64,000 nt of DNA from Polyangia bacterium (GTDB lineage: Bacteria > Myxococcota_A > Polyangia > Fen-1088): assembly GCA_035578045.1 (NCBI GenBank), contig DATJWP010000188.1, positions 404 through 64,403 on the forward strand, given 5' to 3'. The translations under genes were made by a program, and so were the position numbers. This document shows, one piece after another, positions 2,280 to 21,969 of the stretch; the first letter of the stretch is position 1, and each line of letters starts with the position of its first letter. Below the pieces are notes generated by a model. That model searched no databases. It saw nothing but the letters and a program-made list of their open reading frames with translations, and was not told the origin of the DNA.

Positions 2280-2286
2280 TTATCAG

Positions 2287-2309
2287 CCATTGAGTACGCT
2301 ATTCAATGG
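2287..2309. terminator. Hairpin between convergent genes (CCATTGA-9 nt loop-TCAATGG)
   Basis: Perfect 7-bp inverted repeat immediately after the stop at 2279. There is no clear U-tract, and it overlaps the 3' end of the minus-strand ORF. Confidence 0.25.
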
Positions 2310-2958
2310 TCGGAGGTAGCGTGGAGTCAGGGTCGTTTTGACGAGGGGTTTCCCGTTCGTCGACGTCTGTCCGCACTGGCCGCTTGTGATGTTGTGGAGC
2401 GGACAATTTTCGGGGTCCGACCTCAGTTCGAGATGCTGGACGTGGGGGGGTGGATGTCTGCTGTGACGGGTTTGGATATTCCGGTGCTTGCAACGCGGCG
2501 GCCGGCATCGATTTCTTCGGGAGAAGTGACGCGGCCGACGCCGGTGGCGCCCCCGCAGGCCCATGGATGAGCTTTCGCCGCATGCCTTCGTCATGCTCCG
2601 GGAGCACAAACCAGGTGGCGCCCACCGCGACGAGCGCGACCGCAACCGCGAGCATTCGCCACCCGAAGCGTTTGACGGGCGAAGGTTCGTCGAGGTCGCC
2701 GGGCCGAGGCTCTTGCTCGGCTGGCGACATATGGCGCAACGACTGCCCGATCTCGAAGCCGCCACCGGATCCTTGAACCTGTTCGCCCAGTCCGACCTCC
2801 ACGCTTTGATTGGCGGCGGCCGTCACAGGCGGAGTCAGGGCATCCTCGTCGAGTCCCTCCAGCGATGAAGCGAGTTTTCTGTCCTCCACGTTCTCCCTTG
2901 ACGCCGACTCGTCATCCTGGCTTTCGTCGCCGAAGCCGTGGAGAGGCCTGCCCTGCAC
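2299..2958 (-). CDS. Hypothetical single-pass membrane protein (acidic N-terminus, Pro-rich C-terminus)
   Basis: 219-aa ORF with one clear TM helix (WRMLAVAVALVAVGATWFVL). No recognisable family. Competing overlapping ORFs are shorter. Confidence 0.4.
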   Translation of the reverse strand: MQGRPLHGFGDESQDDESASRENVEDRKLASSLEGLDEDALTPPVTAAANQSVEVGLGEQVQGSGGGFEIGQSLRHMSPAEQEPRPGDLDEPSPVKRFGWRMLAVAVALVAVGATWFVLPEHDEGMRRKLIHGPAGAPPASAASLLPKKSMPAAALQAPEYPNPSQQTSTPPRPASRTEVGPRKLSAPQHHKRPVRTDVDERETPRQNDPDSTLPPTIE

Positions 2959-3045
2959 ATTCGGAAGTTACCACACTGAACGCCCCCCGTGTGGCTGCAT
3001 GCGCTGCGTCCGGAGCCAACCAACGGCGCTTCTCGAACTTGTCTG

Positions 3046-6000
3046 ATGGCAACGCCTTCCCTTTTTGTCTACGCTGATCCACCAATGGGTGAACAATCCC
3101 CGGTCCCCGATCGCGCGTCAACGAGCGATACGGGGGGTTATCCGTTGACTCCGATGCAAGCAGGCATGCTCTTTAGCTCGCTCGTTGCGCCTTCCGCTGG
3201 GTACGATATCGGTCAAGTTGATCTGACGCTTCGCGAACACCTGGACGCCGCCGCGCTGGCGCAGGCCTGGACGTCGGTGGCTCGGCGCCATTGGGCCCTG
3301 TCCTGCCGCGTCGTTTGGGACCGTTTCGACGAGCCGAGGCAGATTCCCGTCCCAGGTGTCTTCGTGCCCGTGGAGGTCATCGACTGCGACGGAGCCGGGC
3401 CCACGGCTATCGAGCAGCAGATCGCGCTCTTCTGCCAGCAGGATCGTTTGCGGGGATTCGATCTTGCCAAGGCTCCGCTGATGCGGGTGACCCTGTTCCA
3501 GGCGGCCGGAGCGCCAACCCGCTTCATCTGCACCTTCCACTACATCCTGATGGACGGCCAGAGCCTGCCTATGGTCCTCACGGAGGTGTTTGCGGTATAC
3601 GATCGTATCCGGCAGGGGGCAACGCCTTCTGGCGCGCCGCCAGCCGGATCGTTTGGGGAGTACGTGCAGTCGCTCGCGCGGCGCGACCGCTCCGCGGGTC
3701 ACGCTCACTTTCGTAAGCTCCTCGAGGGACGAGCGGTTCCGACGAGGCTGGCATTTGCGGAGCTGCCCGATCCGGTCACGGCCGGAGGGGCGCACGCCGT
3801 CATCACGCGTACAACGACCGAGGCGCAGTCCGATGCGATCCGGGCGCTGGCGCGGAGGACTGCGACCAGTGTCGCAGCCGTGGCCCATGCCGCGTGGGCT
3901 CTGGCTCTGTCGCGCTACGCGACCGAGACCGACGTTCTATTCGGAACGGCGTTCTCCGATCGATCCTCGGCGCTGGACGGCGGGGCAGCCTCGATGGTTG
4001 GCCTCATGATCAACGTGCTGCCGATTCGAGCGCACTGCGACGATGAGAGGACCGTGGCCCAGCTTCTATCGGAGCTGGAAGGGCAGCTCGCTTCTCTGCG
4101 CGTTCACGGCCATACGCCCCTCCGGGAGATCGGCGGTCACAACGCCGGGGTTGTGGGTCGCTACTCGCTCGAGACGCTACTGATCGTCGAGCCGGAAGAC
4201 CTTGGCTCCGCCCTCGAACGGATGGGAGGCGAGGCCTGGCGGCATCGCGCGTGCCGGCTATACGAGCAACCGATCGTACCGCTGGCCGTCAAGGTAGCCG
4301 CCGGAACACGGATTAGCGTCCAGGTCCTGTTGGACCTACGCCACTATCGCCAGACCGCGGTCGAACGGCTCGTGACGTCATTCATGCTTGCGTTGGACGA
4401 GCTAGCACGGGATGAAACCCGCGCCCTGGGAGCGGTTTCGGTGATCCCGCCGGGAGACCTGGAAACGACCCGCCGTGTCTGGAATGCGACAAACAGACGA
4501 TTCTCCGATCAACTCCTCGTCCACCAGCTGTTCGAGGCGCAGGTCGGGTCCCGTGGCCAAGCGGTGGCCGTTGAACACGAAGGAGACGCTCTCTCGTATG
4601 AACAGCTGGAGGAGCGTGCGAACCGGGTGGCCCACGCCCTGATTGCCCGCGGGGTGGGTCCCGGCGCTTACGTCGGCATCTGCCTCAGTCGGCGCCCCAG
4701 CTTGGTCGCGGCCATCCTGGGCGTGCTGAAGTCGGGCGCCGCCTACGTGCCACTCGATTCTCAATATCCCCCGGCCCGCCTCGCCGCCATGACCGAAAGC
4801 GTGCACGCCACCCTCCTCGTGACCGAGCAAAGACACGCCCACCTGTTTCCGGAGCTCCCGCAGCTCCTTTTGGATGATGACGACTCCGCCCTCCTGAAGT
4901 TCGCCGAGACCCGACCCGCGATCGAGACGACGCCCTCCGAAGTCTGTTGCGTGTTCTTCACATCTGGCAGCACAGGCACGCCGAACGGCGTGATGGTTTC
5001 GCACCGCGCGATGGTCAACACACTGGAGTGGGTGACCCGTGAGTTCTCCGTCAGGCCCGGCGATCGGCTGCTCTTCGTGACGTCTCCCTGCTTCGACCTC
5101 TCCGTCTACGACATTCTCGGCACCCTCGGTGCAGGTGGCACGGTCGTGATCGCAAACGAGGATCTCCTCCGCAGCCCTTCCGCCCTGGCGAACGCCGTCA
5201 CCGGGCGAGCAATTACGATCTGGAATTCGGCTCCCGCCGCCCTGAACCGCATCCTGCCATTTTTGGCCCCCTTGGCCGCGCCCACGCTTCGTTTGGTGCT
5301 GTCGAGCGGCGATCGGATGCCGACCACCTTGCCGGGCGCGATCCGGGCCCTGTTTCCGGCGGCCGAGATCGTGAATCTTGGTGGCGCCACCGAAGCCGCC
5401 ATCTGGTCGAACTGGTTCCGGGTGAGGGACGTCGATCTCGGCTCTCCCCGAATCCCGTACGGCTGGCCGATCCAGAACTGTCGCTACTACATTCTGGACA
5501 GGGCACTCCGTTCCGTCCCGGTCGGGGTCACCGGAGACCTCTACATCGCCGGGGTCTGCCTGGCCGAGGGGTACCTCAACAATCCCGAGCTCACGGATCG
5601 GCGTTTTCTAATCGACCCTGCGGAGCCCCACGACCGGCTCTACAGAACGGGCGACGTCGCTCGCTACCTAGAGGATGGAACGCTCGATCTGATCGGCCGC
5701 GAGGACCAGCAGATCAAGATCCGAGGGTTCCGCGTGGAGATCGGCGAGGTCGAAGCGGCCTTGGCAGGGATGCCGGGGATCACGCACGCGATCTGCGTCC
5801 CATACCAAGATTCACTGGGTGACCGGTTCCTGGTGGCGTACGTCGTGCCCGCCAATCCGGCCACCGTGAACGCGCAATCCATCAAGGAGTTTCTCGCCCG
5901 GCACCTTCCCGACTTTATGATCCCCGCGCAGATCGTTTTCCTGAAGGAACTTCCCCTCTCGTCGAACGGCAAGCTCGACAGGGCGGCCTTGCGGCGGGAC

Positions 6001-7095
6001 CTGAACCGCGACACGGACACGTTCGTCGCGCCTCGCACGGAACAGGAACGTCGGGTAGCGAACATCTGGGAGCGCCTGCTCGATTTTCGTCCGATCGGCG
6101 TCAACGACGATTTCTTCGAGCGCGGAGGCCACTCGCTCCTCGCTGTCGCCTTCGTCGCGGCGGCCCAAGCCGAGCTGAACCTGGCCATTCCCCTCGAAAG
6201 GCTGATGGAGCGCCCAACGATCGCCTCGCTATTGCGGCAACCCAGCCGTTCGGACAGAGCCGCCGACTCCAAGCGATTTCTGCTCTTCAACATGCACGGA
6301 CACCGGCCCCCGCTGGTCCTGCTCCCGGAGCTTCGCGGCCGAATTTACGTTTACCGCGATCTGCCGAAGTCCTTCGGGACGGAACAGCCGGTCTTACTGG
6401 GCCAACCCGTCGGCGGCGAACCCGAAGATTCGGACATCGAACCGACGATCGAACGGATCGCGGAGATCTACGCCGCCGAGCTGAACCGACTCGTGCCAGA
6501 GGGCCCGATCATCGTGGGCGGGTTCAGCTTCGGCACCACAGTGGCACTCGAGCTGGTGCACCGATTGCGCCAGGCCGGCCGACGGGTGCCGCTGCTCGTG
6601 AGCCTCGACGGACTGGCGCCGGGCTACCCGGCGGCTCTGCCGCTGCCGGCTCGTCTGCTCGCGCACCTGAAGTACGCGGTCGGCGCTCCTGCAGCCACAC
6701 GCCCCCTGTACATCGCCGACCGCTTGGCATCGGCACGAAAGATCCTGTATCGCGCACTGGGTCACGAACACTTGCTGTTTCCGGAGAACCTGTCGGCCCC
6801 GCCAGAAACAATCAAACGGCACATGCGGATCTATCGGCTCAACATGCGGGCGATCAGTTGCTATCGCCCGGCCTTCAAAGAGCCCGGCCCGTTCCTGCTG
6901 CTCCGAGCGGAACGGCCCGAACGCTGGGTCGGAATCGAATCCGAGGAGCCAGACCACGGCTGGCGGCAGTTCGTCACGGGCGCGATAACGATCGAGACGT
7001 TACCCGGCGAGCACCTTACAATCATGCGCCCCAGCAATCATCGTTTGGTTGCCGAGAAGATATCATCCGGAATTGACAGATTGGCCAAATTTTAA
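3046..7095 (+). CDS. Single-module nonribosomal peptide synthetase, C-A-T-TE
   Basis: C domain: YPLTPMQAGMLF, and FHYILMDGQS at 3538-3558. A domain: FFTSGSTGTPNGV, FDLSVYD, NLGGATEAAIWS, YRTGDVARY, IKIRGFRVEIGEVE, SSNGKLDR. PCP: FFERGGHSLLAV, Ser codon 6133-6135. TE: GGFSFG (Ser codon 6526-6528), LVSLDG, PGEHLTI. The start is uncertain (GTG 2989, ATG 3046 or ATG 3085). Confidence 0.9.
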   Translation: MATPSLFVYADPPMGEQSPVPDRASTSDTGGYPLTPMQAGMLFSSLVAPSAGYDIGQVDLTLREHLDAAALAQAWTSVARRHWALSCRVVWDRFDEPRQIPVPGVFVPVEVIDCDGAGPTAIEQQIALFCQQDRLRGFDLAKAPLMRVTLFQAAGAPTRFICTFHYILMDGQSLPMVLTEVFAVYDRIRQGATPSGAPPAGSFGEYVQSLARRDRSAGHAHFRKLLEGRAVPTRLAFAELPDPVTAGGAHAVITRTTTEAQSDAIRALARRTATSVAAVAHAAWALALSRYATETDVLFGTAFSDRSSALDGGAASMVGLMINVLPIRAHCDDERTVAQLLSELEGQLASLRVHGHTPLREIGGHNAGVVGRYSLETLLIVEPEDLGSALERMGGEAWRHRACRLYEQPIVPLAVKVAAGTRISVQVLLDLRHYRQTAVERLVTSFMLALDELARDETRALGAVSVIPPGDLETTRRVWNATNRRFSDQLLVHQLFEAQVGSRGQAVAVEHEGDALSYEQLEERANRVAHALIARGVGPGAYVGICLSRRPSLVAAILGVLKSGAAYVPLDSQYPPARLAAMTESVHATLLVTEQRHAHLFPELPQLLLDDDDSALLKFAETRPAIETTPSEVCCVFFTSGSTGTPNGVMVSHRAMVNTLEWVTREFSVRPGDRLLFVTSPCFDLSVYDILGTLGAGGTVVIANEDLLRSPSALANAVTGRAITIWNSAPAALNRILPFLAPLAAPTLRLVLSSGDRMPTTLPGAIRALFPAAEIVNLGGATEAAIWSNWFRVRDVDLGSPRIPYGWPIQNCRYYILDRALRSVPVGVTGDLYIAGVCLAEGYLNNPELTDRRFLIDPAEPHDRLYRTGDVARYLEDGTLDLIGREDQQIKIRGFRVEIGEVEAALAGMPGITHAICVPYQDSLGDRFLVAYVVPANPATVNAQSIKEFLARHLPDFMIPAQIVFLKELPLSSNGKLDRAALRRDLNRDTDTFVAPRTEQERRVANIWERLLDFRPIGVNDDFFERGGHSLLAVAFVAAAQAELNLAIPLERLMERPTIASLLRQPSRSDRAADSKRFLLFNMHGHRPPLVLLPELRGRIYVYRDLPKSFGTEQPVLLGQPVGGEPEDSDIEPTIERIAEIYAAELNRLVPEGPIIVGGFSFGTTVALELVHRLRQAGRRVPLLVSLDGLAPGYPAALPLPARLLAHLKYAVGAPAATRPLYIADRLASARKILYRALGHEHLLFPENLSAPPETIKRHMRIYRLNMRAISCYRPAFKEPGPFLLLRAERPERWVGIESEEPDHGWRQFVTGAITIETLPGEHLTIMRPSNHRLVAEKISSGIDRLAKF

Positions 7096-7163: not shown

Positions 7164-8192
<1,029 letters not shown>

Positions 8193-8195
8193 AGA

Positions 8196-9206
8196 ATGGC
8201 GGACAAGAAGGCCCTGATCACCGGGATCACTGGCCAGGACGGCTCGTACCTGGCAGAGCTGCTCCTTGGCAAAGGCTACGAGGTGAGCGGTATCGTGCGG
8301 CGCTCGAGCTCGTTCAACACGGAACGCCTGCAATCCCACTATCAGGATCCGCACGCGTCGAGCTACCGGCTGCGCCTCATTTACGGCGACCTCGACGACG
8401 GCGCGGCAATAGCGCGGACGATCCGCGACGTAGCGCCGGACGAGATCTACAACCTGGGCGCGCAGAGCCATGTCCGCGTCAGCTTCGACGTGCCAGAGTA
8501 TACAGTCGCCAGCGTGGCGATGGGAACGCTGCGGCTGCTCGAGGCCATTCGAGACACCGGAAAGAGCGTTCGCTTCTATCAGGCATCTTCCAGCGAAATG
8601 TTCGGATCGGCGTCTCCGCCGCAGAGCGAGACGACGCCTTTCCAGCCCCAGAGTCCCTACGCCTGCGCCAAGGTCTTTGCTCACCAGCTTTGTCAGAACT
8701 ATCGGGCCGCCTATGGCCTGTTCATCTCGTGCGGAATTCTCTTCAACCATGAATCTCCGCGGCGCGGGATTCCGTTCGTCACCCGCAAGGTCACCCGGGC
8801 CGCCGCTCGGATCAAGCACGGCCTCGATCGCAAGCTGTACCTGGGCAACCTGGACGCTCGCCGCGACTGGGGCTTTGCCGGAGACTACGTCGATGCGATG
8901 TGGCGGATGCTGCAGGCCGATCGGCCTGACGACTTCGTGATCGCCACCGGCGAGTCACACAGCGTGCGAGAGCTGCTCGACGCGGCCTTCGAAGCCTTGG
9001 GCCTCGACTGGCGCGAATACGTGGAGCTCGATCCGCGCTACCTGAGGCCGACCGAGGTCGATCACCTGGAAGGAGACGCCACCAAGGCGCGGCGGGTGCT
9101 CGGATGGGAGCCACGAGTGCGTTTCAGGGATTTGATCCGGATGATGGTTCAGGCCGACGAGGAGGACATCCGTCTTTCGCTGGCCGGGCGCGCCCCACCC
9201 GCGTAA
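8196..9206 (+). CDS. gmd: GDP-mannose 4,6-dehydratase
   Basis: [56 protein letters not shown]: the classic Gmd motif set. Confidence 0.9.
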
Positions 9207-9218
9207 CGCAGCCGCGAC

Positions 9219-10388
9219 ATGCAACGCCACAGCATCTTTCTCCAGCAACCGATTCTGCCGCCTTATCGGTTGTCGTTCGTCAAACAGCTGGCGAAGTCAC
9301 CTCTTCTGTCGACGACGGTGGCCTACGGACAGGAGCACCCGCGGTCCGCCTTGCGCAGCATCCTAAACCCAGACGGCGTGTCGGTCCGCACTTTGAGGAA
9401 TGTCTTCGTCGCGTCCGATCGGCTGATGACCGCCCAGATGGGCGCGGTGACCGCCTTCGACATCTCGCACTTCGACACCCTGATCTGCACGTTCGATCCA
9501 CGGATCGTCACCAACACACTGCTGGTGCTCAAGGCCAAGCGGCACCACGTGCCGGTCATCCTCTGGGGACACGGCATACGCCCGCGCGGTCGGTTCAAGC
9601 ACCTCTACAAGCGAGCCGCCGAGATCGCCGAGGCAGTGATCCTCTACTCGGCGAAGGGCAAACGCGAGCTGCAGGACCTGGGTGTTCCTGAAGGCAAAAT
9701 GTTCGTCGCCTGGAACTCGATCGATACGCACGTCATCGCGGGCGTGCGTGACGGTAAGCCGCTTCGCGAGCGCGACGGCATCATCTACGTGGGGCGTCTG
9801 GTTCGCGACAAGAAGATCCTGCTACTGATCAAAGGCTTCGCGCGGGCGCGTGGCTCCCTCCCGGCGGCGGCACATCTCTACATCGTCGGGTCCGGACCGA
9901 TGCGTGTGCCTGCCGAGAAGCTGGCCCGCGATCTGGGTATAGCGGCACACGTCACCTTTGCCGGCGAGACCTATCGCGAGGAAGAGGTGGCCAGCTGGAT
10001 GAATCGCTCATGGATCTCGGTCTCGCCCGGGTACATCGGGCTCAGCGTGATCCATGCCTTCGCATACGGCCTCCCGATGATCGCCGGCGATCGCGAACCA
10101 CACAGCCCCGAGGTCGAGGCCTTGCTACCCGGCAAGAATGGCGAGTTCTTTACGGCTGATGACCCGGAAGCGCTGGCCCGTTCGCTGGTATCCATTCACG
10201 CCGATCCTGCACGCTTGACCGCGATGGGTCAGGCGGCGCTCGTCACCAGCGATTTTTTCAGCGTTCGATCGATGGTCGCCGCGTTCGAGCGAGCCGTGGC
10301 TTTCGCCCATGGAGAGGGACCGCCCGATCTGGGCACCTACGGGCTCGACATCGGGCATGGCGCTCTCCACGGGGCCGCGCTGCCGTGA
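9219..10388 (+). CDS. Glycosyltransferase, GT4-like (GT-B fold)
   Basis: C-terminal half shows the GT4 pattern (FAGE...SWISVSPGYIGLSVIHAFAYGLPMIA, E-x7-E-like region). Sits in the co-oriented EPS block. Confidence 0.7.
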   Translation: MQRHSIFLQQPILPPYRLSFVKQLAKSPLLSTTVAYGQEHPRSALRSILNPDGVSVRTLRNVFVASDRLMTAQMGAVTAFDISHFDTLICTFDPRIVTNTLLVLKAKRHHVPVILWGHGIRPRGRFKHLYKRAAEIAEAVILYSAKGKRELQDLGVPEGKMFVAWNSIDTHVIAGVRDGKPLRERDGIIYVGRLVRDKKILLLIKGFARARGSLPAAAHLYIVGSGPMRVPAEKLARDLGIAAHVTFAGETYREEEVASWMNRSWISVSPGYIGLSVIHAFAYGLPMIAGDREPHSPEVEALLPGKNGEFFTADDPEALARSLVSIHADPARLTAMGQAALVTSDFFSVRSMVAAFERAVAFAHGEGPPDLGTYGLDIGHGALHGAALP

Positions 10389-11473
10389 GCGGAGAGCCGC
10401 TCCTGTGCTTGATCGGCACGTTTCCGCCGCCCGTTCACGGGCAGGCGGCCGTGAACGAGGCCGTCCGCAAGCGGGTGGCCGAGGCCGGTTCCCCACACGT
10501 GGTGATCAATCTGGCCGGCGCCTCGCTGGAGCGAGGGTGGCGAACGCGACTCAAACGCATCGGAGCGTTCGGGTCGGGATTGGCATCCTTGCTGAAGCTA
10601 GCGCTGGAGCGGCGGCGGCTCACCATCTACATGAGCGTCTCGGGCGGGTGGGGACAACTATACGAGGCCTGCTTTGCGTCGGTCGGCCGGGCGGTGGACG
10701 CGAGGATGTTCTTGCACCACCACAGCTTTGCGTATCTGGACGAGCGCCGGACGCTGACGGCGCTGCTGGCGTGGATAGCGGGGCCGGAGGCCACCCACGT
10801 GGTCCTTTGCGAGCGGATGGCGCGCCTCCTGCGGGAGCGCTATACGCCGGTGCGGCAGGTCATGGAGATCTCGAACGCTGGCCTGGTGGATCCACCCTCA
10901 GGTGAAGCGACGCCGCGCCCGGCTCTGAAGACGCTCGCCTTTCTCAGCAACGTCTCGCGAGAGAAGGGTGTGCTGCGCTTCCTCGACGTGATCGAGGCCT
11001 TGCGGCGAGAGAGACTGGGCCTTCGCGCCCGGATTGCGGGCCCTTTCCAGGACGCGGAGATCGAAAGCACCGTTCGCCAGCGCCTGGCGCGCCTCGGCGA
11101 TGGCGTGGAATACCTGGGCGCGCGCTACGGCGAAGAGAAGCGGCGCTTCTTCCTCGAAGCGGACGCGCTCCTTTATCCGTCCGACTACGTAAACGAAGCC
11201 GAGCCGCTCGTGATCTGGGAGGCCGTATCTCAAGGACTCCCGGTGGTCGCCTGGGGCCGCGGATGCATCGGTCAGATGCTGTCGGACGGCGCAGGGGCCG
11301 CCGTCCCTGTCGCCGAGGACTTTCTCCCCGACGCCGTGGGCCGCGTCAAGGAGTGGATCTCGCGGCCCGACCTGTTCACCGAGGCGTCGCGGCGAGCGGC
11401 GGAGTCGTTCGCCCACCGGCGCCGGGCCGCCGAAGCCGGCGCCGCAACCCTCATCCGGCTGTTGACATCATGA
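10385..11473 (+). CDS. Glycosyltransferase, GT4-like
   Basis: GTGA start/stop overlap with the upstream GT. C-terminal region has a GT-B type E-x7-E stretch (YPSDYVNEAEPLVIWEAVSQGLPVVA). Confidence 0.65.
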   Translation: MSGEPLLCLIGTFPPPVHGQAAVNEAVRKRVAEAGSPHVVINLAGASLERGWRTRLKRIGAFGSGLASLLKLALERRRLTIYMSVSGGWGQLYEACFASVGRAVDARMFLHHHSFAYLDERRTLTALLAWIAGPEATHVVLCERMARLLRERYTPVRQVMEISNAGLVDPPSGEATPRPALKTLAFLSNVSREKGVLRFLDVIEALRRERLGLRARIAGPFQDAEIESTVRQRLARLGDGVEYLGARYGEEKRRFFLEADALLYPSDYVNEAEPLVIWEAVSQGLPVVAWGRGCIGQMLSDGAGAAVPVAEDFLPDAVGRVKEWISRPDLFTEASRRAAESFAHRRRAAEAGAATLIRLLTS

Positions 11474-12426
11474 CGTTCGAGAGATCACCGGGGTGCGTCC
11501 TGTGCGGGGCACATGTGCAGGAGTCGTTGGACCGCGTCTTCGATGCCCGCTTCGGCGTCCCAGGTTTCTGGACAATCGGCATCTGCTCCGCATGCGGGCT
11601 TGAGCAGACGTTTCCGCTTCTCGACCTCTCCGCGCTCCGGGCCCTGTACGAGGCGCACTACAACTTTGGTGGCGAGAAAGACACGCTGTACGATCGCCTG
11701 CGCGAGCGTTTCCTGGGCTCGGCCGCCTACGCGATGTGGCTGCGTCTTGACGGAGACGTTTCGTTTCACGGCCGCCGAGGCCAGGGGCGACTTCTGGACG
11801 TTGGGTGCAACGAGGGCCGGAGTCTGCTTCGATATCGGGCCGGTGGATTCACCGCAGAAGGGGTGGAGATCAACGCGATGGCGGCGGCTCGTGCCCGGGC
11901 AGCCGGGTTCCGCGTGCACGAAGGCACCATCGAGGACTTTCGCCCCACTCAGCTCTACGATGTGGTGGTTCTGTCGAACGTGCTCGAACACGCGCTGGAT
12001 CCGCGGGACATGCTCCGCCGGGTACGAAGCGTCTTGGCGCCCGGGGGGCAGCTGTGGGTGAGCCTTCCGAACGGGCGTAGCTGGCTGCGTGCCCTCTTCG
12101 GGCGGGCTTGGATCAACTGGCACGTGCCCTTTCATATCGTTCATTTCTCGGAAGCGACCCTAGGCAAGTTACTTCGCGAAGAAGGCTTCGCGGTAGAGTC
12201 GACGAATTGCACAACGCCGGCTGTCTGGGTCTGCCAATCACTCCTGGCCGCCGTTTTTGGCCGGCCGAGCCGCCCCACATTGGCTTTGCGAAACCCGGCG
12301 CTGGTCGGGGGGGTGATGGCGGCCATTCGGGGGCTGTTCTTTCCGGTCTTGTGGGCCGGCGACGTCACCGGCCGAGGAGACTGCCTGGTGGTCACCGCGC
12401 GAAAGGACGCCCGATCGGCGGTGTAG
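11470..12426 (+). CDS. Class I SAM-dependent methyltransferase with N-terminal CxxC...CxxC zinc-ribbon
   Basis: ATGA overlap with the upstream GT. CVLCGAHV...CSACG, SAM motif I LLDVGCNEGRSL, and VVVLSNVLEH. The track ORF start at 11263 is an upstream extension overlapping the GT. Confidence 0.75.
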   Translation: MTFERSPGCVLCGAHVQESLDRVFDARFGVPGFWTIGICSACGLEQTFPLLDLSALRALYEAHYNFGGEKDTLYDRLRERFLGSAAYAMWLRLDGDVSFHGRRGQGRLLDVGCNEGRSLLRYRAGGFTAEGVEINAMAAARARAAGFRVHEGTIEDFRPTQLYDVVVLSNVLEHALDPRDMLRRVRSVLAPGGQLWVSLPNGRSWLRALFGRAWINWHVPFHIVHFSEATLGKLLREEGFAVESTNCTTPAVWVCQSLLAAVFGRPSRPTLALRNPALVGGVMAAIRGLFFPVLWAGDVTGRGDCLVVTARKDARSAV

Positions 12427-12523: not shown

Positions 12524-13759
12524 ATGGCCGTTCGTCGGATCTTGATTGTGGCAGTCAACTACTGGCCGGAGCCAACCGGAACAGCTCCTTATACGACCGG
12601 CCTGGCCGAACACCTGGTGACGCGGGACTGGGAGGTCAAGGTCGTCACAACGATGCCCTATTACCCGACCTCGAGTGTTTTCGCCGAGTATCGGTCGGCC
12701 GCCTGGCGGAAGGAGCTTGTGAATGGGGTGCGGATCCTGCGCGGGCGACCGTATGTGCTGAACCGACAGACCGCGTTTGCACGAGCTTTGCTCGAAGCAT
12801 CCTTTCTGCTGAGCTCAGGCCCACTCATCGCCGGGGCCGCGCCGGACCTGGTGCTGGGCATCAGTCCAGGCATCAGTAGTGCTTTGCTCGCTCTGGCTGC
12901 CGCGCGCATCTACCGTGTGCCGCTAGCGCTGTGGATCCAGGATCTCCTGGGAGCCGGCGCCATACAGAGCGGGGTGCCGGGGGGCCAAACGATCGGGTCC
13001 GCAGCGACCCTCGTCGAAGGATGGATAGCTCGACAAGCCGATCGAATCGCCATCATCTCTCAGTCATTCCGTCCGTATCTGGCTGCGGCCGGTGTCTCGG
13101 CTGACAGAATCAGCCGAATCCGGAACTGGACCCACATCGGGCGCGCGACGAGGTCACGCGAAGCCGTTCGTGCCGACTTCGGCCTCGGCAGCTCCGACTG
13201 GATCTGCCTTCATGCGGGAAACATGGGCTACAAGCAGGGCCTCGAGAACATCGTGGATTGTGCCCGACTCGCCCAGTCGGTAGCGCCCGACCTCACCTTC
13301 GTCCTTTTGGGCGACGGCAACCAGCGGGCGATGCTGGAAGAACGAGGACGACATCTACCCAATTTGCGGTTCTTGCCGACCCAGAGCAATGAGCAGTTCG
13401 CCAATGCACTCGCAATGGCCGACGTTCTGCTGGTAAACCAGCGCGCGTCTGTCACGTCGATGTCTCTCCCGAGCAAGCTCACTTCTTACCTCGCGGCAGA
13501 TCGGCCCATCGTGGCCGCAGTGTCTTCCGGTGAGGTGGCGAGCCTCCTGACAGAGGTCGGCGCCGGGGCTGTCGTACCACCGGAATCGCCCGCCGCGCTA
13601 TTGGAACAACTCGTGTCACTCCGCCGCCAGCCCACCTTGGCGGCGGAAATGGCCGCTCGCGGGGCGGAATACGCCCGGACTGTCCTCTCCCCCGGCCAAA
13701 CTCTGACGGCACTCGAGCGGTTCGTCGGCGGACAGGACGATAGGGGTTCGCCGGTGTGA
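12524..13759 (+). CDS. Glycosyltransferase, WcaI-like (GT4)
   Basis: N-terminus ILIVAVNYWPEPTGTAPYTTGLAEHL is typical of WcaI-type GTs. Has a C-terminal GT-B region. Confidence 0.7.
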   Translation: MAVRRILIVAVNYWPEPTGTAPYTTGLAEHLVTRDWEVKVVTTMPYYPTSSVFAEYRSAAWRKELVNGVRILRGRPYVLNRQTAFARALLEASFLLSSGPLIAGAAPDLVLGISPGISSALLALAAARIYRVPLALWIQDLLGAGAIQSGVPGGQTIGSAATLVEGWIARQADRIAIISQSFRPYLAAAGVSADRISRIRNWTHIGRATRSREAVRADFGLGSSDWICLHAGNMGYKQGLENIVDCARLAQSVAPDLTFVLLGDGNQRAMLEERGRHLPNLRFLPTQSNEQFANALAMADVLLVNQRASVTSMSLPSKLTSYLAADRPIVAAVSSGEVASLLTEVGAGAVVPPESPAALLEQLVSLRRQPTLAAEMAARGAEYARTVLSPGQTLTALERFVGGQDDRGSPV

Positions 13760-14731: not shown

Positions 14732-15691
14732 TCACTCGCCCGGACGACCGCCCGGGTTGCGAGCGGACATCAGTCGGCTCGACCCGAGCAGCGTGGCGAG
14801 CTTCTTCCTGACCGCCTGAGCGTAGTACCTATACGAGTGAGCGACGTTCGGCAAATGCGACAACAGTGAAAGCCATCGATAGTCGCCCTCCCGGCTCAAG
14901 TCAAACAATCCGAACTGACTGATGACGAAAGGGCTCTGGTCGCCGGGGAGCCTTACCGGCGAGCGAGAGAATCGCCTCTTCTGGAGGTGGATGTAGACGT
15001 ACTCCCGCTGTAACCCATCCCCGGCATCACAAAAAAGCCGGCCATCCCTCCATACGAACAATTGACCCCACCTGTTTGGATGTCGGGTAATGTACAGAAA
15101 GGGTGACCGCGGCGAAATATCCGCAATCATCTCCGCCCTGCAAACGGAGAGATTGTTCTCTCGAAAGATCACGTCGATCCCGTTAGTCTCGTCGAAGGCG
15201 ACTGAATCGTCAGTGGAGAACGCCGCGCGGTAATCTCGCACCCCGCCTGGCAATTCATACGCTGCATTAACGACCGGGTCATTCTTGTAGAGAGTAAAGT
15301 GACCGCGTCTGAATATCTTGACGTACTTCGTGGAGCGCGCCACATCCAACACAGGCGTCAAGTCACCAAAGACCATGTCGAAATCGCAGTGCCCCCACCA
15401 GTCGCAGCCTTTGAGCTCCGGTGCAAAGATCTTTCCAAACGCAGGACGAAAATCGCAGAGCTTGTAGGGGGACCTGAGAGCGATAGGAAAGTTGAAATTG
15501 CTTTGGAAGCGCGCTGCGAGCTCTTTGAATGTCGTGGTCACAAACTGAACGTTGGCTGGCATGCCCTGAGGCGGGGTGAAATCCCCGAAGAACAGAAACT
15601 CCACGCGGCTGTTCTTGGCACAAGAGGCCAGGAAATTGACGAAGTAAGGGGGCATCCGGCCAAAATAGGCATTTATTACGATGACCCTCAT
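14732..15691 (-). CDS. DUF6625-like protein of capsule/EPS loci (putative glycosyltransferase)
   Basis: The N-terminus (VIVINAYFGRMPPYFVNFLASCAKNSRVEFLFF...PYKLCDFRPAFG...WWGHCDFDMVFGDL) matches, from memory, a family common in polysaccharide loci. This is the lowest-GC gene in the window. Confidence 0.5.
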   Translation of the reverse strand: MRVIVINAYFGRMPPYFVNFLASCAKNSRVEFLFFGDFTPPQGMPANVQFVTTTFKELAARFQSNFNFPIALRSPYKLCDFRPAFGKIFAPELKGCDWWGHCDFDMVFGDLTPVLDVARSTKYVKIFRRGHFTLYKNDPVVNAAYELPGGVRDYRAAFSTDDSVAFDETNGIDVIFRENNLSVCRAEMIADISPRSPFLYITRHPNRWGQLFVWRDGRLFCDAGDGLQREYVYIHLQKRRFSRSPVRLPGDQSPFVISQFGLFDLSREGDYRWLSLLSHLPNVAHSYRYYAQAVRKKLATLLGSSRLMSARNPGGRPGE

Positions 15692-16636: not shown

Positions 16637-17974
16637 TCACCGTCCCTCGAGCCCCTGGGAAGGATGCTGGTGCTGGGTCAGTGCATCATCCGAAGGGGCG
16701 AAGATCTCAAGCGCGGCGGTCCTCGGGCGATTCAGGTCGAGCAATGACATGGTCGCAAAGAGTGCCTTTTGCATCCACAGGGTGAAGCTGAACTGTGCCT
16801 CAATGAAATGAAAGACGACCAAGAGAAGCAGTAGCAGATCCAGTGAACGCATCTGGCCGTTAACCGCGGCCCGCCCGTGGAGGACCAGGCTTACAACCAG
16901 GAGAAGAAGGATCGACACACCGATTAGTCCGTTCTCAGCCGCAACCTCCAATGTCAGGTTGTGTGGGTATGGTAATGGCGAGTAAGAGGCGAAGGCCCCT
17001 GTACCGACTCCAAGCACTGCATTATGTTCAAAGAGCTCGACGGCCGTCGACTGTCCCTCCATTCGATCGGCAATGGATTGCCCGTGACTTCGTGATGTGA
17101 TGAGTGACATGTTCGTCACCAGCCGTCCGATGAACTCGGGCTTGGCCGCAGCCGGAATCGCCACCAGAAGGGCGCCCACCAGGAGCGTGCCTACCATGGC
17201 GCGGATCGTCGACAGCGTTGGCTGCCGTCCGAACCACCCCACCGACGCGAACACGAGGGTGCCAACGAACGCCAGGACGGTGCCGCGGGTGTTGCTCGCG
17301 AGGAAGACAAACGCTATCAGACCAGTGGAGAGACCGAGGGCACCGAGTCGAGGGGGTCGCCGCCGTCCCATCGCTTCCTGGATCAACCAATACACGCTGA
17401 CTATGAGAGCGGAACCGATTGAGACGCTGAAGGGAATCGGGTGGGCGCTCCCAAGAGTGAGTCGACCTGTCTCGACGGCCGGTCGAAAGAGTAGCGCTAC
17501 GAGGCCAAGGCCCATCGCCAACAGCCAGGTGACCAGCAGGAAAGCCTCGATGTTCCGGCGTGCATACTCGGGCGGGCCGCAAAGGCTCAGGCGACCGGAA
17601 AGGTAGAAACTCAACCCGAGGCAAAAGTACCTTGCTGTGATCTCGAGGCCGCGATGCAGATCGGGCGCGAGGAGCGCGCCGAAAAGTAGATCCCCGCCCA
17701 GGCCGATCAGCAAGAGATCCAGCGGGTGTATGCGAAGGTAGTGGAGCCTCCGGCGAGAGAGAATCGCCGTTATACCCAGCACGAGGATCGGAAGACCTAC
17801 CCCTACGATCGTGTCGGCGGGCGCGGTTGCAGCGGAATCGAAAACTGCCTCAGCTGTCGGCCGAGCTGTCGCACTTCGGAGGAGGTAGCCGTTGACCGCA
17901 ATTGCCAGCCCCGCGGCGGGCCGCCACACTGTACAAAGACCAGCGATCAACAGGACGCCAAACGATGCCAACAT
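16637..17974 (-). CDS. O-antigen ligase/polymerase family membrane protein (Wzy-like)
   Basis: About 10-12 TM helices with a periplasmic loop, and its position between wzc and the hydrolase. Confidence 0.7.
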   Translation of the reverse strand: MLASFGVLLIAGLCTVWRPAAGLAIAVNGYLLRSATARPTAEAVFDSAATAPADTIVGVGLPILVLGITAILSRRRLHYLRIHPLDLLLIGLGGDLLFGALLAPDLHRGLEITARYFCLGLSFYLSGRLSLCGPPEYARRNIEAFLLVTWLLAMGLGLVALLFRPAVETGRLTLGSAHPIPFSVSIGSALIVSVYWLIQEAMGRRRPPRLGALGLSTGLIAFVFLASNTRGTVLAFVGTLVFASVGWFGRQPTLSTIRAMVGTLLVGALLVAIPAAAKPEFIGRLVTNMSLITSRSHGQSIADRMEGQSTAVELFEHNAVLGVGTGAFASYSPLPYPHNLTLEVAAENGLIGVSILLLLVVSLVLHGRAAVNGQMRSLDLLLLLLVVFHFIEAQFSFTLWMQKALFATMSLLDLNRPRTAALEIFAPSDDALTQHQHPSQGLEGR

Positions 17975-17992: not shown

Positions 17993-20455
17993 TCAGGCAA
18001 CCTCGACGATCCGCGCTATCCCATCTGCGGGGCGATAACCTTTTCCGGCCGAATAGCCGTACTCCTTCGAGTGAACGTCATCGATGCCGTTGACGACCAA
18101 CCCATATTCGAGCACCGGATTTGCCAGAAACCGACGAATATGTTCCTCGGCCGCACGCCGGCGGGTGTTTTGTAGTCGAATGATCGAGACTACTCCGTCG
18201 ACATACCGCGAAAGAATTAGGGCGTCCGAAAGGAGTGGAAAGGGCGGCGAATCCACCAGAACGAAGTCGTAATTCTGTCGCGCAAATGCAATGAGATTGC
18301 CGACTTCGCGGCGAGACAGTAACTCTGCTGCTGCCTGCCCTGAGGGGCTACCCGCCGTTATCGCGTCGAAATTCCCGACGCACGTAGATACCGTGCGAAC
18401 GATGTCACTTCTACGGGGTAGGCTACTCAGCCCCACATCGGGGGATTGTTTGAATAGACGGTGGTGACTGGGCCGGTGCATATCGCCCTCTATCACCATC
18501 ACGCGCTTCCCGTCTGCCACCAACGCCACAGCCAATGAGAGCGTACACAGTGTCTTGCCGTCTCCAGGCATCGGTGACGTCATCAACAACACCTTGACGT
18601 CCCGACGATTCGCGCCCATCCGATACACACTCGCACGCAGGTGACGGAACGACTCCGCGAATGCGGGATCGCCCCCGGCAAACAAATCAAATGGCAAAGC
18701 CTGTCTTGCTCGTTCCGCCTCGAGGCCGCCGCCAGCAGTCTTGCGTTTTGGAATCGTCCCCAGCATCACGAGGTCACCGGTCTCCCTTCTGAGATCGATT
18801 TCAGTTTCAAAGGTTGCCATCACCAGCCGCTTTAAGCCGATCCAGATCACGGCAACAATCAAGCCCAGAGCGGCCGCGCCTATCAGTCGAAGGAAGAGAA
18901 GAGGCGAGTCCTCATGAAACGAAACCTGTGGCGAATCCAGGACGTGATTGCGAGACATCGTCGCGGCCTTGCCTACCGTCGCTTGCTCCTGGTGTTCGAG
19001 CAAAAACGTATACATTTTGCTGAGGACGTCGGCGTTTCGGGTCAGTTGGGCCAACTCTAGTTGGGCGGCCGGCACCGTCTTCATCTTGTCGTGGAAATGC
19101 GCGATCAGGTGGTCCAGCGAGGCCAACTGTTCTTGCGCTCGTGAACGGCGACTCGTTATGTACTTTCGGACGGAATTGGACAGTCCGTCGACTTGGGCGA
19201 GCGCCTCGCGAACCTCGGGTGCATCGTCGGTAAAGCGCTGTCTCTGCCGATCGAGGTCCTGGCGGGCCTGGGCTAAATTCGTACTCAGTCCACTGAGGAC
19301 CGGATCGGATGCTTCACCGACCAGAAACTGCTCAAGGTTAGCACCTGCCTTTTTCAGGCTGCCCGACACCTGATCGAACGCGGCGACCTGCATTTGGGCC
19401 GCCAGCCGTTGCTGCTCGTATTGTGCAGTCTGTTCGATCAGGTTAGTCGTATCGTCACCGAGAACCACGACCGCTGAATTCTGTTTGTAGTCGGCAAGTT
19501 GTTTGTCTGCGTCGTAGAGTGCCTGTTTGACGCTCTTTACCTGCTCTCCGATGAAGGTTTCCGCTTGAGTAGCTTCCTCCGTCTTCCAGGACTGCCGGCG
19601 CTCTAGATATCGGCGCATCAGGCTGTCCACAAACTGAACGGCCAGGTCGGGCGACCGAGATAGAAACTCGATCGCTGCGATGCGGACATTCTCTCCTGGA
19701 GCTGCGGAATTGGGTGACTTGGGCAGGCTGACGGCGAGCGAGTGTTTAATTTCCTCGACTACCGTCGAGGTCGGCGACACTGAAAGGGCGTAGGATGCGC
19801 CTTGCGGGGGGTCGGTCGCCCCGCTCCTGGTGATCGTGAAGGACACGACATCGCTCGAGAACGGCTGCCCGATCTGTCCTCGGCCGATGGCGGGCCCATG
19901 TTCGCCACTGACCAAGAACGCACCACCGCTGGCGAAATCCACCTGAAAGGAGCGTGCTTCTGGAATGTAGGTCGCGAGGCGAGCATCGGTCACCTGAAGC
20001 CGGGAGCCGCTCTCGAGGACCCTCGGATCACGACGAGCCCAGAGCCACCGCCAGAATCGCGGTGGATGCCAACCGACGGGGGCGATACGAGCCGTCAGCC
20101 CCGAGCGCAGAGCGGCCTCTCGGAGGGCGTCGTCACTCTGTAGGATAGCCAGTTCCGTTCCGATCTCATCAGTTTGCCCGCCAACGAAGTCAATCTGTTC
20201 CGGCAGTCCCTCTTGGGCCCCGAGATGGCGCTGGACCTCGCCGAGGTAAAGGCTGCCCTTCGCTCGGAAAGTCATCCGGCCCAAAAGGGTCAAAGCAGCC
20301 ATCGCCATCGTCGCGCCACCGATGCAGATGATCAGCAAGCGGGCGTTTCGTCGAAGCAACATCCAGAGTTCGGATAGCTCGCGCGCGCCAGGGCGGAACA
20401 TAGGGATCGCCCCCACCAGCGCTTTCCGAGAGTCGAGCGGTTCTTGCGACGTCAT
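17993..20455 (-). CDS. Polysaccharide co-polymerase with BY-kinase domain (Wzc/GumC-type, PCP-2a)
   Basis: N-terminal Wzz-like TM and coiled-coil region. C-terminal Walker A SPMPGDGKT and Walker B FVLVDSPP. Tyr-containing tail KEYGYSAGKGY. Confidence 0.85.
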   Translation of the reverse strand: MTSQEPLDSRKALVGAIPMFRPGARELSELWMLLRRNARLLIICIGGATMAMAALTLLGRMTFRAKGSLYLGEVQRHLGAQEGLPEQIDFVGGQTDEIGTELAILQSDDALREAALRSGLTARIAPVGWHPPRFWRWLWARRDPRVLESGSRLQVTDARLATYIPEARSFQVDFASGGAFLVSGEHGPAIGRGQIGQPFSSDVVSFTITRSGATDPPQGASYALSVSPTSTVVEEIKHSLAVSLPKSPNSAAPGENVRIAAIEFLSRSPDLAVQFVDSLMRRYLERRQSWKTEEATQAETFIGEQVKSVKQALYDADKQLADYKQNSAVVVLGDDTTNLIEQTAQYEQQRLAAQMQVAAFDQVSGSLKKAGANLEQFLVGEASDPVLSGLSTNLAQARQDLDRQRQRFTDDAPEVREALAQVDGLSNSVRKYITSRRSRAQEQLASLDHLIAHFHDKMKTVPAAQLELAQLTRNADVLSKMYTFLLEHQEQATVGKAATMSRNHVLDSPQVSFHEDSPLLFLRLIGAAALGLIVAVIWIGLKRLVMATFETEIDLRRETGDLVMLGTIPKRKTAGGGLEAERARQALPFDLFAGGDPAFAESFRHLRASVYRMGANRRDVKVLLMTSPMPGDGKTLCTLSLAVALVADGKRVMVIEGDMHRPSHHRLFKQSPDVGLSSLPRRSDIVRTVSTCVGNFDAITAGSPSGQAAAELLSRREVGNLIAFARQNYDFVLVDSPPFPLLSDALILSRYVDGVVSIIRLQNTRRRAAEEHIRRFLANPVLEYGLVVNGIDDVHSKEYGYSAGKGYRPADGIARIVEVA

Positions 20456-20489: not shown

Positions 20490-21638
20490 TTATTGTGAGA
20501 GAAACTTGATCTGCACGAAGGGTTCAAGCAGCCCAGCGACCGTCTGAAGCGAGGGAAGAATTTCTTGGATCGCTTCGTTCCAAGTCGTCAAAGCGGTTGC
20601 TGGAATGAAGACTATGTCGCCTGGCGCAAGAGCAAATGATGCTGCCTCCCCTCGAAGGATCTTCTCTACGTCGATGACAAAGAACCTTCCTCGATCAGCT
20701 TCGCTGCGAATGACCCTGACGGCGTCCAGACGGCCTTGGGTGCGCTCGCGAAATCCGATTCCGGCCTGAGCCAGCGCCTGCAATATATCCAGGTGCCCCT
20801 GGAAAAATGGTACCGCTCCGCCCCGCGCGTTACTTCCAGCGGCCCCACCGAAGACAAATGCTTGCTCATTTAGATTGTCGGGGACGACGATGGCGTCGCC
20901 GGGCATGAGCCAGATGTTGAACCTGAGATCGCCATCCCGAAGCAGCCGAGAAAAGTTGATCGGTAACTTTTTACCTGCCCGAGCGATATAGGTGCTGCTC
21001 AGACTCGCCTTTTCAAAAACAATGCTGCCCCCAAGGGAAACAGCCTCCAGCAGATGCATTGGTCGATCTGCGTACTTTAGGCCCGGATTGGTGAACTGAC
21101 CTATGAGGTAGTACCGAATGCTGCCGTTGTAAATCACCTGGACGACTACCTTCGGATCCCGCACAAAATGTGCGAGGGCCTGTTCCAGAAAGACTCGCAA
21201 TTGCTCGGAAGTTTTCCCAGCCACTGGGACTGAGCCTATCAGTGGAAACTGAATCTCGCCGTTGTTGTCGACGTAGTAACCCGCAGTTCGCCCTCCTTGA
21301 AGATTACCGGCACCTGCGTTGGATCCCGAGTAGGCTGCTATGGCGAGTTCAGGATGGTTGAACACCGCGACGAGCAGCGTATCCCCCGGCCCGACCTTAT
21401 AAGCCTCGGTGTCTTTGGGCTCAGCGAGATCCGCGAGCACTTTTGGATCGAGAAACTCGTCCTTCTGAGAGACGATCGGCGAGGGCAGCAACCGGGTCGC
21501 CACGACGGGGTGCATGTTGCTCGTTGCGCAACCTGCTCCCACCGCGGTCGCGCAAACTACCGCTACCGCCAGGCCGCGAAGCAGCGTACCGGTTCGGGGC
21601 TCGACGCGTGCTTTCGGGCCAGGGATGCTCGTCCCCAT
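20490..21638 (-). CDS. Polysaccharide export outer-membrane lipoprotein (Wza/OPX family)
   Basis: Lipobox AVGAGC after the signal peptide. YKVGPGDTLLVAVFNHPEL is a Poly_export motif, followed by SLBB-like repeats. I chose the start at ATG 21638; the track start at 22127 would overlap wzx. Confidence 0.8.
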   Translation of the reverse strand: MGTSIPGPKARVEPRTGTLLRGLAVAVVCATAVGAGCATSNMHPVVATRLLPSPIVSQKDEFLDPKVLADLAEPKDTEAYKVGPGDTLLVAVFNHPELAIAAYSGSNAGAGNLQGGRTAGYYVDNNGEIQFPLIGSVPVAGKTSEQLRVFLEQALAHFVRDPKVVVQVIYNGSIRYYLIGQFTNPGLKYADRPMHLLEAVSLGGSIVFEKASLSSTYIARAGKKLPINFSRLLRDGDLRFNIWLMPGDAIVVPDNLNEQAFVFGGAAGSNARGGAVPFFQGHLDILQALAQAGIGFRERTQGRLDAVRVIRSEADRGRFFVIDVEKILRGEAASFALAPGDIVFIPATALTTWNEAIQEILPSLQTVAGLLEPFVQIKFLSQ

Positions 21639-21969
21639 CGAGGTGCGTAAAGTTTGCGTCAAGACTACGTTTCCCACAACGTCACACGCCTCATCACGTG
21701 TAGGGTAAGCTAGCAGGTTTTCTTTTGTGGAACAACGCTTCGGTTTCGCGATCGAAGCCCGCCGCGAATTGGTCTGCTCCCAGCCATTGGGACCGCCGAC
21801 GTTCGCGACCTTCGAGCTCGGCCCCGGGTCCGGCGTTGCCGAGTTGCCATAACCACGAAGGCCGAACGATCGGGTTAACTGTGGATGAACCTCGCGAGGA
21901 AAATCAGCAGCTTGTGTTTCAGCGCTCCCGACCGACGCCGTCCCGGTGGTCGTCCACCTCGCTTCGGCG

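Follow-up and report, generated by a model that had tools for sequence, protein, structure and literature searches.

Among the nonribosomal peptide synthetase (NRPS) modules that activate cysteine, Cy-A(Cys)-T modules combine a heterocyclization (Cy) domain, which carries a DxxxxD motif, with a cysteine-specific adenylation (A) domain and a carrier (T) domain, often together with an oxidase. The yersiniabactin, bleomycin and epothilone pathways form thiazolines or thiazoles with modules of this kind. Two others are module 2 of BmdB from the bacillamide pathway, a Cy-A-PCP module (PCP, peptidyl carrier protein) that was crystallized with a cysteine-vinylsulfonamide adenylate inhibitor, and PchE, which provides the cysteine-derived thiazoline of pyochelin (PMC10510592). 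Here we analyzed a 64,000-nucleotide stretch of DNA from a Polyangia bacterium (GenBank assembly GCA_035578045.1, contig DATJWP010000188.1, positions 404 to 64,403, forward strand), in the following termed the window. It encodes a single-module NRPS (protein P0002) whose A domain has the same pocket as the A domains of BmdB and PchE, which are its nearest solved relatives, but the Cy domain is replaced by an ordinary condensation (C) domain with the motif HYxxxDG, no oxidase or reductase is present, and the gene lies in a polysaccharide locus.

Ordinary C domains in front of cysteine-loading A domains are known from the thiocoraline, echinomycin, triostin and SW-163 pathways, whose C-A-P-E, C-A-M-P and C-A-M-P-TE modules load cysteine and keep the thiol (PMC4052310). 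The window protein resembles these modules in layout, but they belong to assembly lines with four modules and a chromophore as primer, whereas the window protein consists of a single module. The complete C-A-PCP-TE architecture (TE, thioesterase) in one protein of ~1300 amino acids (aa) is shared with AB3403 of Acinetobacter baumannii and with EntF. However, AB3403 was crystallized with Gly and EntF loads Ser, whereas the window pocket is of the Cys type, and the window C domain lacks the second His of the HHxxxDG motif typical of EntF and AB3403. The donor of both proteins comes from a free-standing A enzyme and a carrier (PMC10510592), neither of which was found in the window locus. Moreover, neither AB3403 nor EntF is encoded in a polysaccharide locus, unlike the window NRPS.

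A likeness of a different kind concerns the Dlt system (DltA-D), which D-alanylates teichoic acids, and AlmEFG, which attaches glycine to Vibrio lipid A, both in a carrier-dependent manner. In these systems an enzyme activates a small amino acid by adenylation and charges a carrier with it, and from the carrier the amino acid reaches a surface glycoconjugate. In contrast to them, the A and T domains of the window protein are fused with C and TE domains, the window locus gave no Pfam match to their membrane partners (the MBOAT protein DltB, AlmG and a DltD-type esterase), and DltA-type models scored far below their cut-offs against the window NRPS.

We infer that the window module may load L-cysteine and pass a noncyclized cysteinyl unit to an acceptor of the glycan pathway, a reading to which we give about an even chance. 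The A domain adds a new member to the known cysteine class; the glycan setting is the more remarkable feature.

Architecture and binding pocket of the window NRPS

The open reading frame (ORF) of the NRPS extends from 2989 to 7095 on the forward strand; it is open from 2989, and the recorded protein begins at 3085. Pfam matches to Condensation, AMP-binding, PP-binding and Thioesterase follow one another in this order and form one complete C-A-T-TE module (spans counted from the first codon of the ORF: Condensation 50-382, AMP-binding plus AMP-binding_C 515-995, PP-binding 1022-1083, Thioesterase 1108-1359). The features of the gene, with the residue counts of the family described below, are:

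3085..7095, + strand: single-module NRPS gene, C-A-T-TE, 1336 aa, P0002 (Pfam; protein on record)
3136..4488, + strand: Condensation domain of the DCL/starter-like kind (best solved matches McyB, PvdL, SrfA-C and TycB)
3538..3558, + strand: C3 motif H-Y-I-L-M-D-G, Tyr for the second His (TAC, one transition from CAC)
4531..5973, + strand: adenylation domain (AMP-binding plus AMP-binding_C; Pfam)
4960..4989, + strand: A3 motif TSGSTGTPNG, Asn at the Lys position of PKG (family column K 81, N 10)
5095..5973, + strand: ten binding-pocket codons spelling DLYNLSLIWK (alignment to GrsA)
6052..6237, + strand: carrier (T) domain, GGHSL, with the phosphopantetheine Ser at 6133-6135 (invariant in the family)
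6310..7065, + strand: thioesterase domain, with Ser at 6526-6528 (GGFSFG), Asp in SLDG and His at 7012-7014 (motifs)

The His of the TE is part of a PGEHL motif. The best solved match of this domain was the TE of AB3403 (67.6 bits), and EntF was among the best NCBIfam matches of the whole protein.

An earlier note on this DNA had read the specificity code of the A domain by hand as DLYNLSLIWK and had assigned it to cysteine. We extracted the code again by Smith-Waterman local alignment of each protein to GrsA residues 186-526, which had been checked letter for letter, numbering included, against PDB 1amu_A. GrsA itself, used as alignment control, returned DAWTIAAICK, and the window protein returned DLYNLSLIWK with all ten residues at the codons read by hand: D235 at 5095-5097, L236 at 5098-5100, Y239 at 5107-5109, N278 at 5224-5226, L299 at 5299-5301, S301 at 5305-5307, L322 at 5377-5379, I330 at 5401-5403, W331 at 5404-5406, and K517 at 5971-5973. 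The hand alignment was not shifted, and its outer limits, 5095 and 5973, are those of the D235 and K517 codons. That this code has been published for cysteine was likewise borne out: a 2025 survey of 2051 A domains gives DLYNLSLIWK under Cys-activating signatures (PMC12283262). The literature search found the exact code in one paper and the variant DLYDMSLIWK in none.

The 141-aa segment carrying positions 235-331 was searched alone against all PDB sequences. The scores were 108.8 bits for BmdB, 82.7 bits for PchE, 74.5 bits for FmoA3 (6lta) and 52.8 bits for the Gly domain of LgrA, and the likeness to BmdB is too close to have arisen by chance. All nine variable pocket residues are identical in BmdB and the window protein, which also have the stretches FDLSVYD, ITIWN, LVLxSGD and LGGATEAxIW in common, and the pocket of PchE differs from that of the window protein solely by Phe239.

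A stand-alone family with a cysteine-type pocket

A maximum-likelihood tree was calculated for 98 A-domain cores, with branch support from the Shimodaira-Hasegawa-like approximate likelihood ratio test (SH-aLRT). All A domains with a DLY..IW code formed one clade (SH-aLRT 99), sister to a clade of Gly-like DIL..IW domains. Within it, one subclade (97) contained A domains of multi-module NRPSs, six of them located after a Cy-like motif and two after HHxxxDG, and the other (100; 43 rows) contained the window protein and its stand-alone relatives, none of which is characterized. The window A domain is thus sister to the biochemically known cysteine domains and not nested within them. Its identical pocket and its place in the DLY..IW clade bring it near proven cysteine domains, although its own lineage has no characterized member; by these sequence features it is a genuine member of the cysteine-type clade, and its substrate is probably cysteine. 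The label "cysteine type" given in the earlier note therefore suits the code, the nearest solved domains and the clade, with the qualification that the domain belongs to a sister subclade.

The family was represented by an alignment of 91 homologues, which are 1290-1460 aa long, show 40-77% identity and without exception have the order C-A-T-TE. The pocket of these proteins reads D-L-Y-(D 72/N 19)-(M 67/L 24)-S-L-I-W-K, and the canonical Asn278 is shared by basal members of the family and the sister clade. The Ser of the T domain and the His of the TE are invariant in the 91 proteins, whereas the Asp of the TE is found in 85 and its Ser in 78. In the other 13 proteins Cys replaces the nucleophilic Ser (P0002 column 1148). 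Together with the relatives described in the next section, the family comprises uncharacterized stand-alone modules composed of a C or formyltransferase domain as cap, a Cys-type A domain, a T domain and a TE, sometimes with a fused GT2 glycosyltransferase.

The divergence of this clade bears on the possibility that the enzyme in fact uses a different small amino acid, such as Ser, Ala, Gly, 2,3-diaminopropionate or a nonproteinogenic thiol amino acid, the 10-residue code being not transferable to the family. The family stands apart from the characterized Cy-linked cysteine domains, most of its members have Asp278 and Met299 in place of Asn and Leu, and the broader clade includes the Gly domain of LgrA and the alpha-methylserine domain of FmoA3. 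In addition, the near-identical code DLYNLSGVWK was reported to accommodate Ala (PMC12283262). We nevertheless regard another substrate as unlikely for the window protein, whose code agrees at ten of ten positions with the published one and whose variable residues all equal those of BmdB; its pocket segment scored twice as high against cysteine domains as against the Gly domain. A thioredoxin-like gene (Thioredoxin_7) that is translationally coupled to the NRPS gene of the family member P0037, overlapping its stop codon (L180 14029-14586), also fits thiol chemistry.

As for the upstream domain, the earlier note had described it as C-like, with HYxxxDG and no Cy domain. HYILMDG is indeed encoded at 3538-3558, no DxxxxDxxS motif is present, and the best solved matches are ordinary C domains. 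The further statement that cysteine domains normally have a Cy partner held as a tendency. Searches of genome contigs with the family alignment and of metagenome contigs with the protein had mostly yielded generic multi-module NRPSs of 27-37% identity, L099 and L100 being the only family members among the matches, and the remaining multi-module NRPSs were reused as a comparison set. In this set, Cys-type codes followed a DxxxxDxxS Cy motif in five cases (L013, L020, L023, L036 and L092) and HHxxxDG in two (L079 and L003). To call the pairing of a Cys-type A domain with a C domain unusual is in line with the greater frequency of Cy domains in this multi-module sample but goes too far, as such modules are documented in the thiocoraline group and the pairing is the rule in the 91-member family. 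It is not new chemistry, and the A-domain observation alone is modest. The Cy domain is missing because the window protein is not a thiazoline-forming module but a stand-alone family member. No oxidase or reductase for a thiazole or thiazolidine was found among the Pfam or NCBIfam matches of the genes in 1-26.5 kb. From a Cys-type pocket beside an ordinary C domain one would expect the product to retain a free thiol and not to contain a thiazoline, which is useful for annotation.

What is peculiar to the window copy is not this pairing but the Tyr at the second His of the C motif. The first His is present in 91 of the 91 family members, and the column of the second His contains H in 86, R in two, Q in two and Y in one, the window protein. 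The latter deviates from the consensus at 11 of the 193 columns that are ≥95% conserved, the third highest value of the 91 proteins (family median, 1). Six of these 11 substitutions are old, because they are common to the 75%-identical relative P0003. Counted at columns that are ≥94% conserved, losses on the window branch affected 5 of 41 columns in the C domain and 2 of 178 elsewhere (Fisher one-sided p = 0.003). The five C-domain losses are E43G, W149C, H153Y, P223A and R420H (1336-aa numbering). A domain-by-domain relative-rate test showed a modest increase on the window branch (85 versus 57 substitutions) and no acceleration specific to the C domain. Judged by HYxxxDG and the other lost near-invariant residues, the C domain of the window protein is probably weakened. 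Since the second His is dispensable in some C domains (PMC10510592), the domain may still work. The A, T and TE domains look intact: the Ser of the T domain, the Ser, Asp and His of the TE, the A10 Lys and all pocket residues are in place.

These deviations, namely HYxxxDG, PNG for PKG in A3 and the 11 substitutions at highly conserved columns, as well as the modest excess of changes on the window branch, might suggest a decaying passenger of a horizontally acquired island that no longer makes a useful product. The absence of the gene from 60 relatives and its position in a lower-GC block beside a tRNA gene, both described below, would suit such a passenger. We consider it very unlikely, as the frame is unbroken over 1336 codons, the catalytic and pocket residues listed above are retained, about half of the substitutions (6 of 11) are shared with the 75%-identical relative, Asn occurs at the PNG position in 10 of the 91 members, and losses specific to the window protein cluster only in the C domain.

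With regard to distribution, no orthologue of the NRPS with >50% identity was found in 60 related genomes, nor among 400 genomes from the phylum and 300 from the class; the two larger searches scored only two candidates per genome, which makes the absence there weak evidence. The cultured myxobacteria Minicystis, Sorangium So ce1128 and Myxococcus CA023 gave multi-module matches only. The source genome is a metagenome-assembled genome, 87% complete, with one phosphopantetheinyl transferase of Sfp size. The window C domain is the only one in this genome, and the sole other A and T matches are on another contig.

Polysaccharide loci around the NRPS family

The NRPS gene is the second in a co-oriented run of genes and lies between a wcaJ-type gene and fcl, gmd and glycosyltransferase (GT) genes, all on the same strand, and the later genes of the locus are on the opposite strand:

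403-476, + strand: tRNA-Gly(CCC), left edge of the lower-GC block
819-2279, + strand: WcaJ-type priming undecaprenyl-phosphate glucose phosphotransferase (TIGR03023, 478 bits, above cut-off)
3085-7095, + strand: NRPS, second in the co-oriented run (Pfam)
7212-8192, + strand: fcl-like GDP-L-fucose synthase (Pfam/NCBIfam)
8196-9206, + strand: gmd, GDP-mannose 4,6-dehydratase (above cut-off)
9219-11473, + strand: two GT4/GT1-type glycosyltransferases, 389 and 362 aa (Pfam/NCBIfam)
11263-12426, + strand: S-adenosylmethionine-dependent methyltransferase, start uncertain (overlaps the preceding GT)
12524-13759, + strand: WcaI-family glycosyltransferase (NCBIfam, 278.8 versus a cut-off of 276 bits)
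14732-15691, - strand: DUF6625 protein (Pfam)
16637-17974, - strand: Wzy-like polymerase (Wzy_C)
17993-20455, - strand: Wzc-like co-polymerase/tyrosine kinase (GNVR/AAA_31)
20490-22127, - strand: Wza-like exporter (Poly_export)
21970-23310, - strand: Wzx-like flippase (weak match)

The locus has the genes of a Wzx/Wzy-dependent, colanic-acid-like polysaccharide system, namely priming transferase, flippase (weak match), polymerase, co-polymerase and exporter. The block from 1 to 24 kb has a GC content of 0.60-0.65 compared to 0.67-0.72 in the rest of the window and starts directly after tRNA-Gly(CCC), and the locus is probably a horizontally acquired island. A DNA-methylase-like fragment (24349-25002) lies near the right edge of the block. 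The WcaI-family protein provides the locus with a recognizable colanic-acid-type candidate fucosyltransferase. The second GT ORF and the methyltransferase ORF (10385-12426) overlap by ~210 nucleotides as listed; the methyltransferase domain begins at residue 173, so that the start is probably further downstream, or else the protein has an N-terminal domain without assignment.

A free-standing adenylating enzyme with a carrier, as a source of an acyl donor, was not found in the window locus. Two further candidates were sought and rejected. The 800-nucleotide gap between wcaJ and the NRPS gene (2280-3084) was inspected for a small ORF or carrier gene, but its ORFs were of low complexity and without Pfam match. 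The P0003 locus has a 71-aa ORF in the corresponding place, and a promoter, a leader or a small gene may be located in the gap. A hidden membrane acyltransferase was sought among the unannotated proteins of the locus, none of which has multiple transmembrane segments.

Neighborhoods were compared for 16 family members, the window protein included, some of which are related to each other, and 12 of the 16 were linked to glycan genes. The arrangement of the window is best seen in its two closest counterparts. In the P0003 locus, Bac_transf, a small ORF and the NRPS gene are followed by two GTs that equal the window pair in length (389 and 362 aa), and then by GT4 and Poly_export genes. In the P0004 locus (NRPS 57% identical), the order is Bac_transf, NRPS, GT, and the flanking genes share 75% and 69% identity with their window counterparts; the first window GT and the gene that follows the NRPS in L098 are 69% identical. 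Synteny of the wcaJ-type gene with the NRPS gene is kept in both loci.

More distant members showed other combinations. The P0045 gene is followed by an unknown gene, Acyl_transf_3, GT2, Wzx, WcaD, GH16, GT4, GT2 and Wzc. P0006 and P0008 are found with UDP-glucose dehydrogenase, GT2, Bac_transf, WecG, hexapeptide transferases, Poly_export, EpsX and Wzx, and a gene for a fatty-acyl-AMP-ligase-like protein plus carrier is translationally coupled to their NRPS genes. In P0118, C-A-T-TE is fused to GT2, and in L100 a GT2 gene lies directly upstream of the NRPS gene. In P0067 from Microbulbifer elongatus and in L099, Acyl_transf_3 comes after the NRPS gene. In the Microbulbifer proteins, P0067 and P0066 (M. 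hainanensis), this gene and the NRPS gene are translationally coupled. Altogether, Acyl_transf_3 is located after or near the NRPS gene in three members (L095 6256-7509, L097 14155-15324, L099 3767-4912), an arrangement whose logic recalls that of DltB or AlmG. Because of this proximity, the carrier-bound aminoacyl thioester may be the donor for the acyltransferase in those relatives.

In two relatives of the window organism, Formyl_trans_N/C replaces the C domain, and the code is DLYDMSLIW in both. In a genome of the same genus (G002, L195 471-6044), formyltransferase-A-T-TE-GT2 forms one protein of 1857 aa; its gene adjoins an alcohol dehydrogenase gene and an OEP/HlyD/MacB efflux set. In a genome of the same family (G031, L196 3695-8074), a formyltransferase-A-T-TE gene is located ~1 kb from Bac_transf, with a gene for an extracytoplasmic function sigma factor near. 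Across uncultured Polyangia and other bacteria, the A-T-TE core occurs repeatedly, both in glycan loci and as part of GT2 fusions. As the 6.1-Mb genome of the window contains only four Bac_transf genes, we estimate a chance of ~1% that a random gene lies within 10 kb of one, whereas the association was found in at least three independent lineages of the family.

Alternatively, the NRPS could make a free small molecule, such as an N-acyl- or N-formyl-cysteine lipoamino acid or an oligomer made by the TE in the manner of AB3403 and EntF, and merely share an island or regulation with the polysaccharide genes. The C-A-T-TE layout and a TE nearest to that of AB3403 would agree with this, as the pathways of AB3403 and EntF release discrete products and are fed by a free-standing A enzyme with a carrier (PMC10510592). 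The ligase-like proteins plus carriers coupled to P0006 and P0008, the efflux set beside the G002 gene and the 4 of 16 neighborhoods without glycan genes point in the same direction. On the other hand, the window NRPS gene lies inside a co-oriented run from wcaJ to fcl, gmd and the GT genes, the wcaJ-NRPS-GT cassette has been kept in relatives at 57-75% identity, GT2 was fused to the same polypeptide in two lineages, and the window locus has neither an acyl donor enzyme nor a small-molecule exporter. We therefore rate a free product as possible but somewhat unlikely.

A proposed route to a cysteinyl glycan and further carrier proteins in the same genome

For transfer of a cysteinyl unit to a glycan intermediate, the following sequence of steps can be envisaged. 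The A domain would adenylate L-cysteine and load it on the adjacent T domain, the C domain, if still active, would cap the amino group, and the Ser-Asp-His TE would release the cysteinyl unit, with its thiol kept, onto a lipid-linked sugar intermediate at the cytoplasmic face, where a hydroxyl or an amine would accept it, or else to water. A capping role of the N-terminal domain toward the amino group of the tethered amino acid is suggested because C and formyltransferase domains interchange before a conserved Cys-type A-T-TE core; the F domain of LgrA formylates a tethered amino acid. In proteins of the P0006 type, the coupled acyl-AMP-ligase plus carrier could supply the acyl donor. In the window, an uncapped or otherwise capped cysteinyl thioester appears likely, because no donor is encoded in the locus and the C domain is eroded. 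A sugar intermediate is favored as acceptor because the NRPS gene lies between the priming transferase and the GT genes and because GT2 fusions occur elsewhere. Where relatives have Acyl_transf_3, passage of the unit through the membrane in the manner of Dlt would be the natural alternative; as the window has no membrane acyltransferase partner, any transfer there would have to be cytoplasmic.

Several results weigh against this proposal. Pfam searches and a check for transmembrane segments revealed no AT3 or MBOAT acyltransferase in the window locus that would carry the unit outward, and no glycan gene was found in the neighborhoods of P0016, P0030, P0037 and P0090. The A domain is not nested within the known cysteine domains, and as most family members carry Asp278 (72 of 91) and Met299 (67 of 91), specificity for Cys may not extend to the whole family. 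The C domain may also still work. The NRPS diverges faster than its neighbors (57% versus 69-75% identity to the P0004 locus), and this fast evolution together with the absence from relatives would also fit a dispensable or decaying gene. Finally, the literature search gave no product of the family, no paper describing the family or its glycan link, and nothing relevant on NRPSs in exopolysaccharide or capsule loci.

A broader version of the proposal is that an undescribed, widespread family puts a thiol-bearing, cysteine-derived substituent on Wzx/Wzy polysaccharides or glycolipids, which we regard as rather doubtful. If true, redox-active or metal-binding "thiolated" exopolysaccharides would be made by a thioester-templated route in which a carrier-bound aminoacyl thioester replaces acetyl-CoA as acyl donor. 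Modules that decorate polysaccharides would constitute an unrecognized class of polymer modification; tools that mine biosynthetic gene clusters would label them as orphan NRPSs, and glycan annotation would overlook them. As cultured Microbulbifer species (M. elongatus and M. hainanensis) carry a family member, the idea is testable.

Two further loci in the genome of the window, both on contig C187 and thus outside the window, bring the occurrences of carrier/TE proteins beside glycan genes in this genome to three. The second glycan locus (L197 1010-12446) contains genes for Bac_transf, a two-domain dioxygenase resembling glyoxalase and 4-hydroxyphenylpyruvate dioxygenase, prephenate dehydrogenase, an epimerase/dehydratase, GT1 and GT2, and for a 1036-aa (C-remnant)-A-T-TE protein with the pocket SIFHSGICMK. 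Because this pocket lacks Asp235, its substrate is probably not an alpha-amino acid, and it may be an aryl or a keto/hydroxy acid derived from 4-hydroxyphenylpyruvate. The third locus, of glycan type (L198 5992-18770), encodes GT87, a PMT_2 GT-C, a GT2-GtrA protein, a methyltransferase, a 991-aa protein, GT2, a UbiA prenyltransferase and an AlgX-like SGNH acyltransferase. The 991-aa protein consists of ~620 residues without assignment followed by PP-binding and Thioesterase domains.

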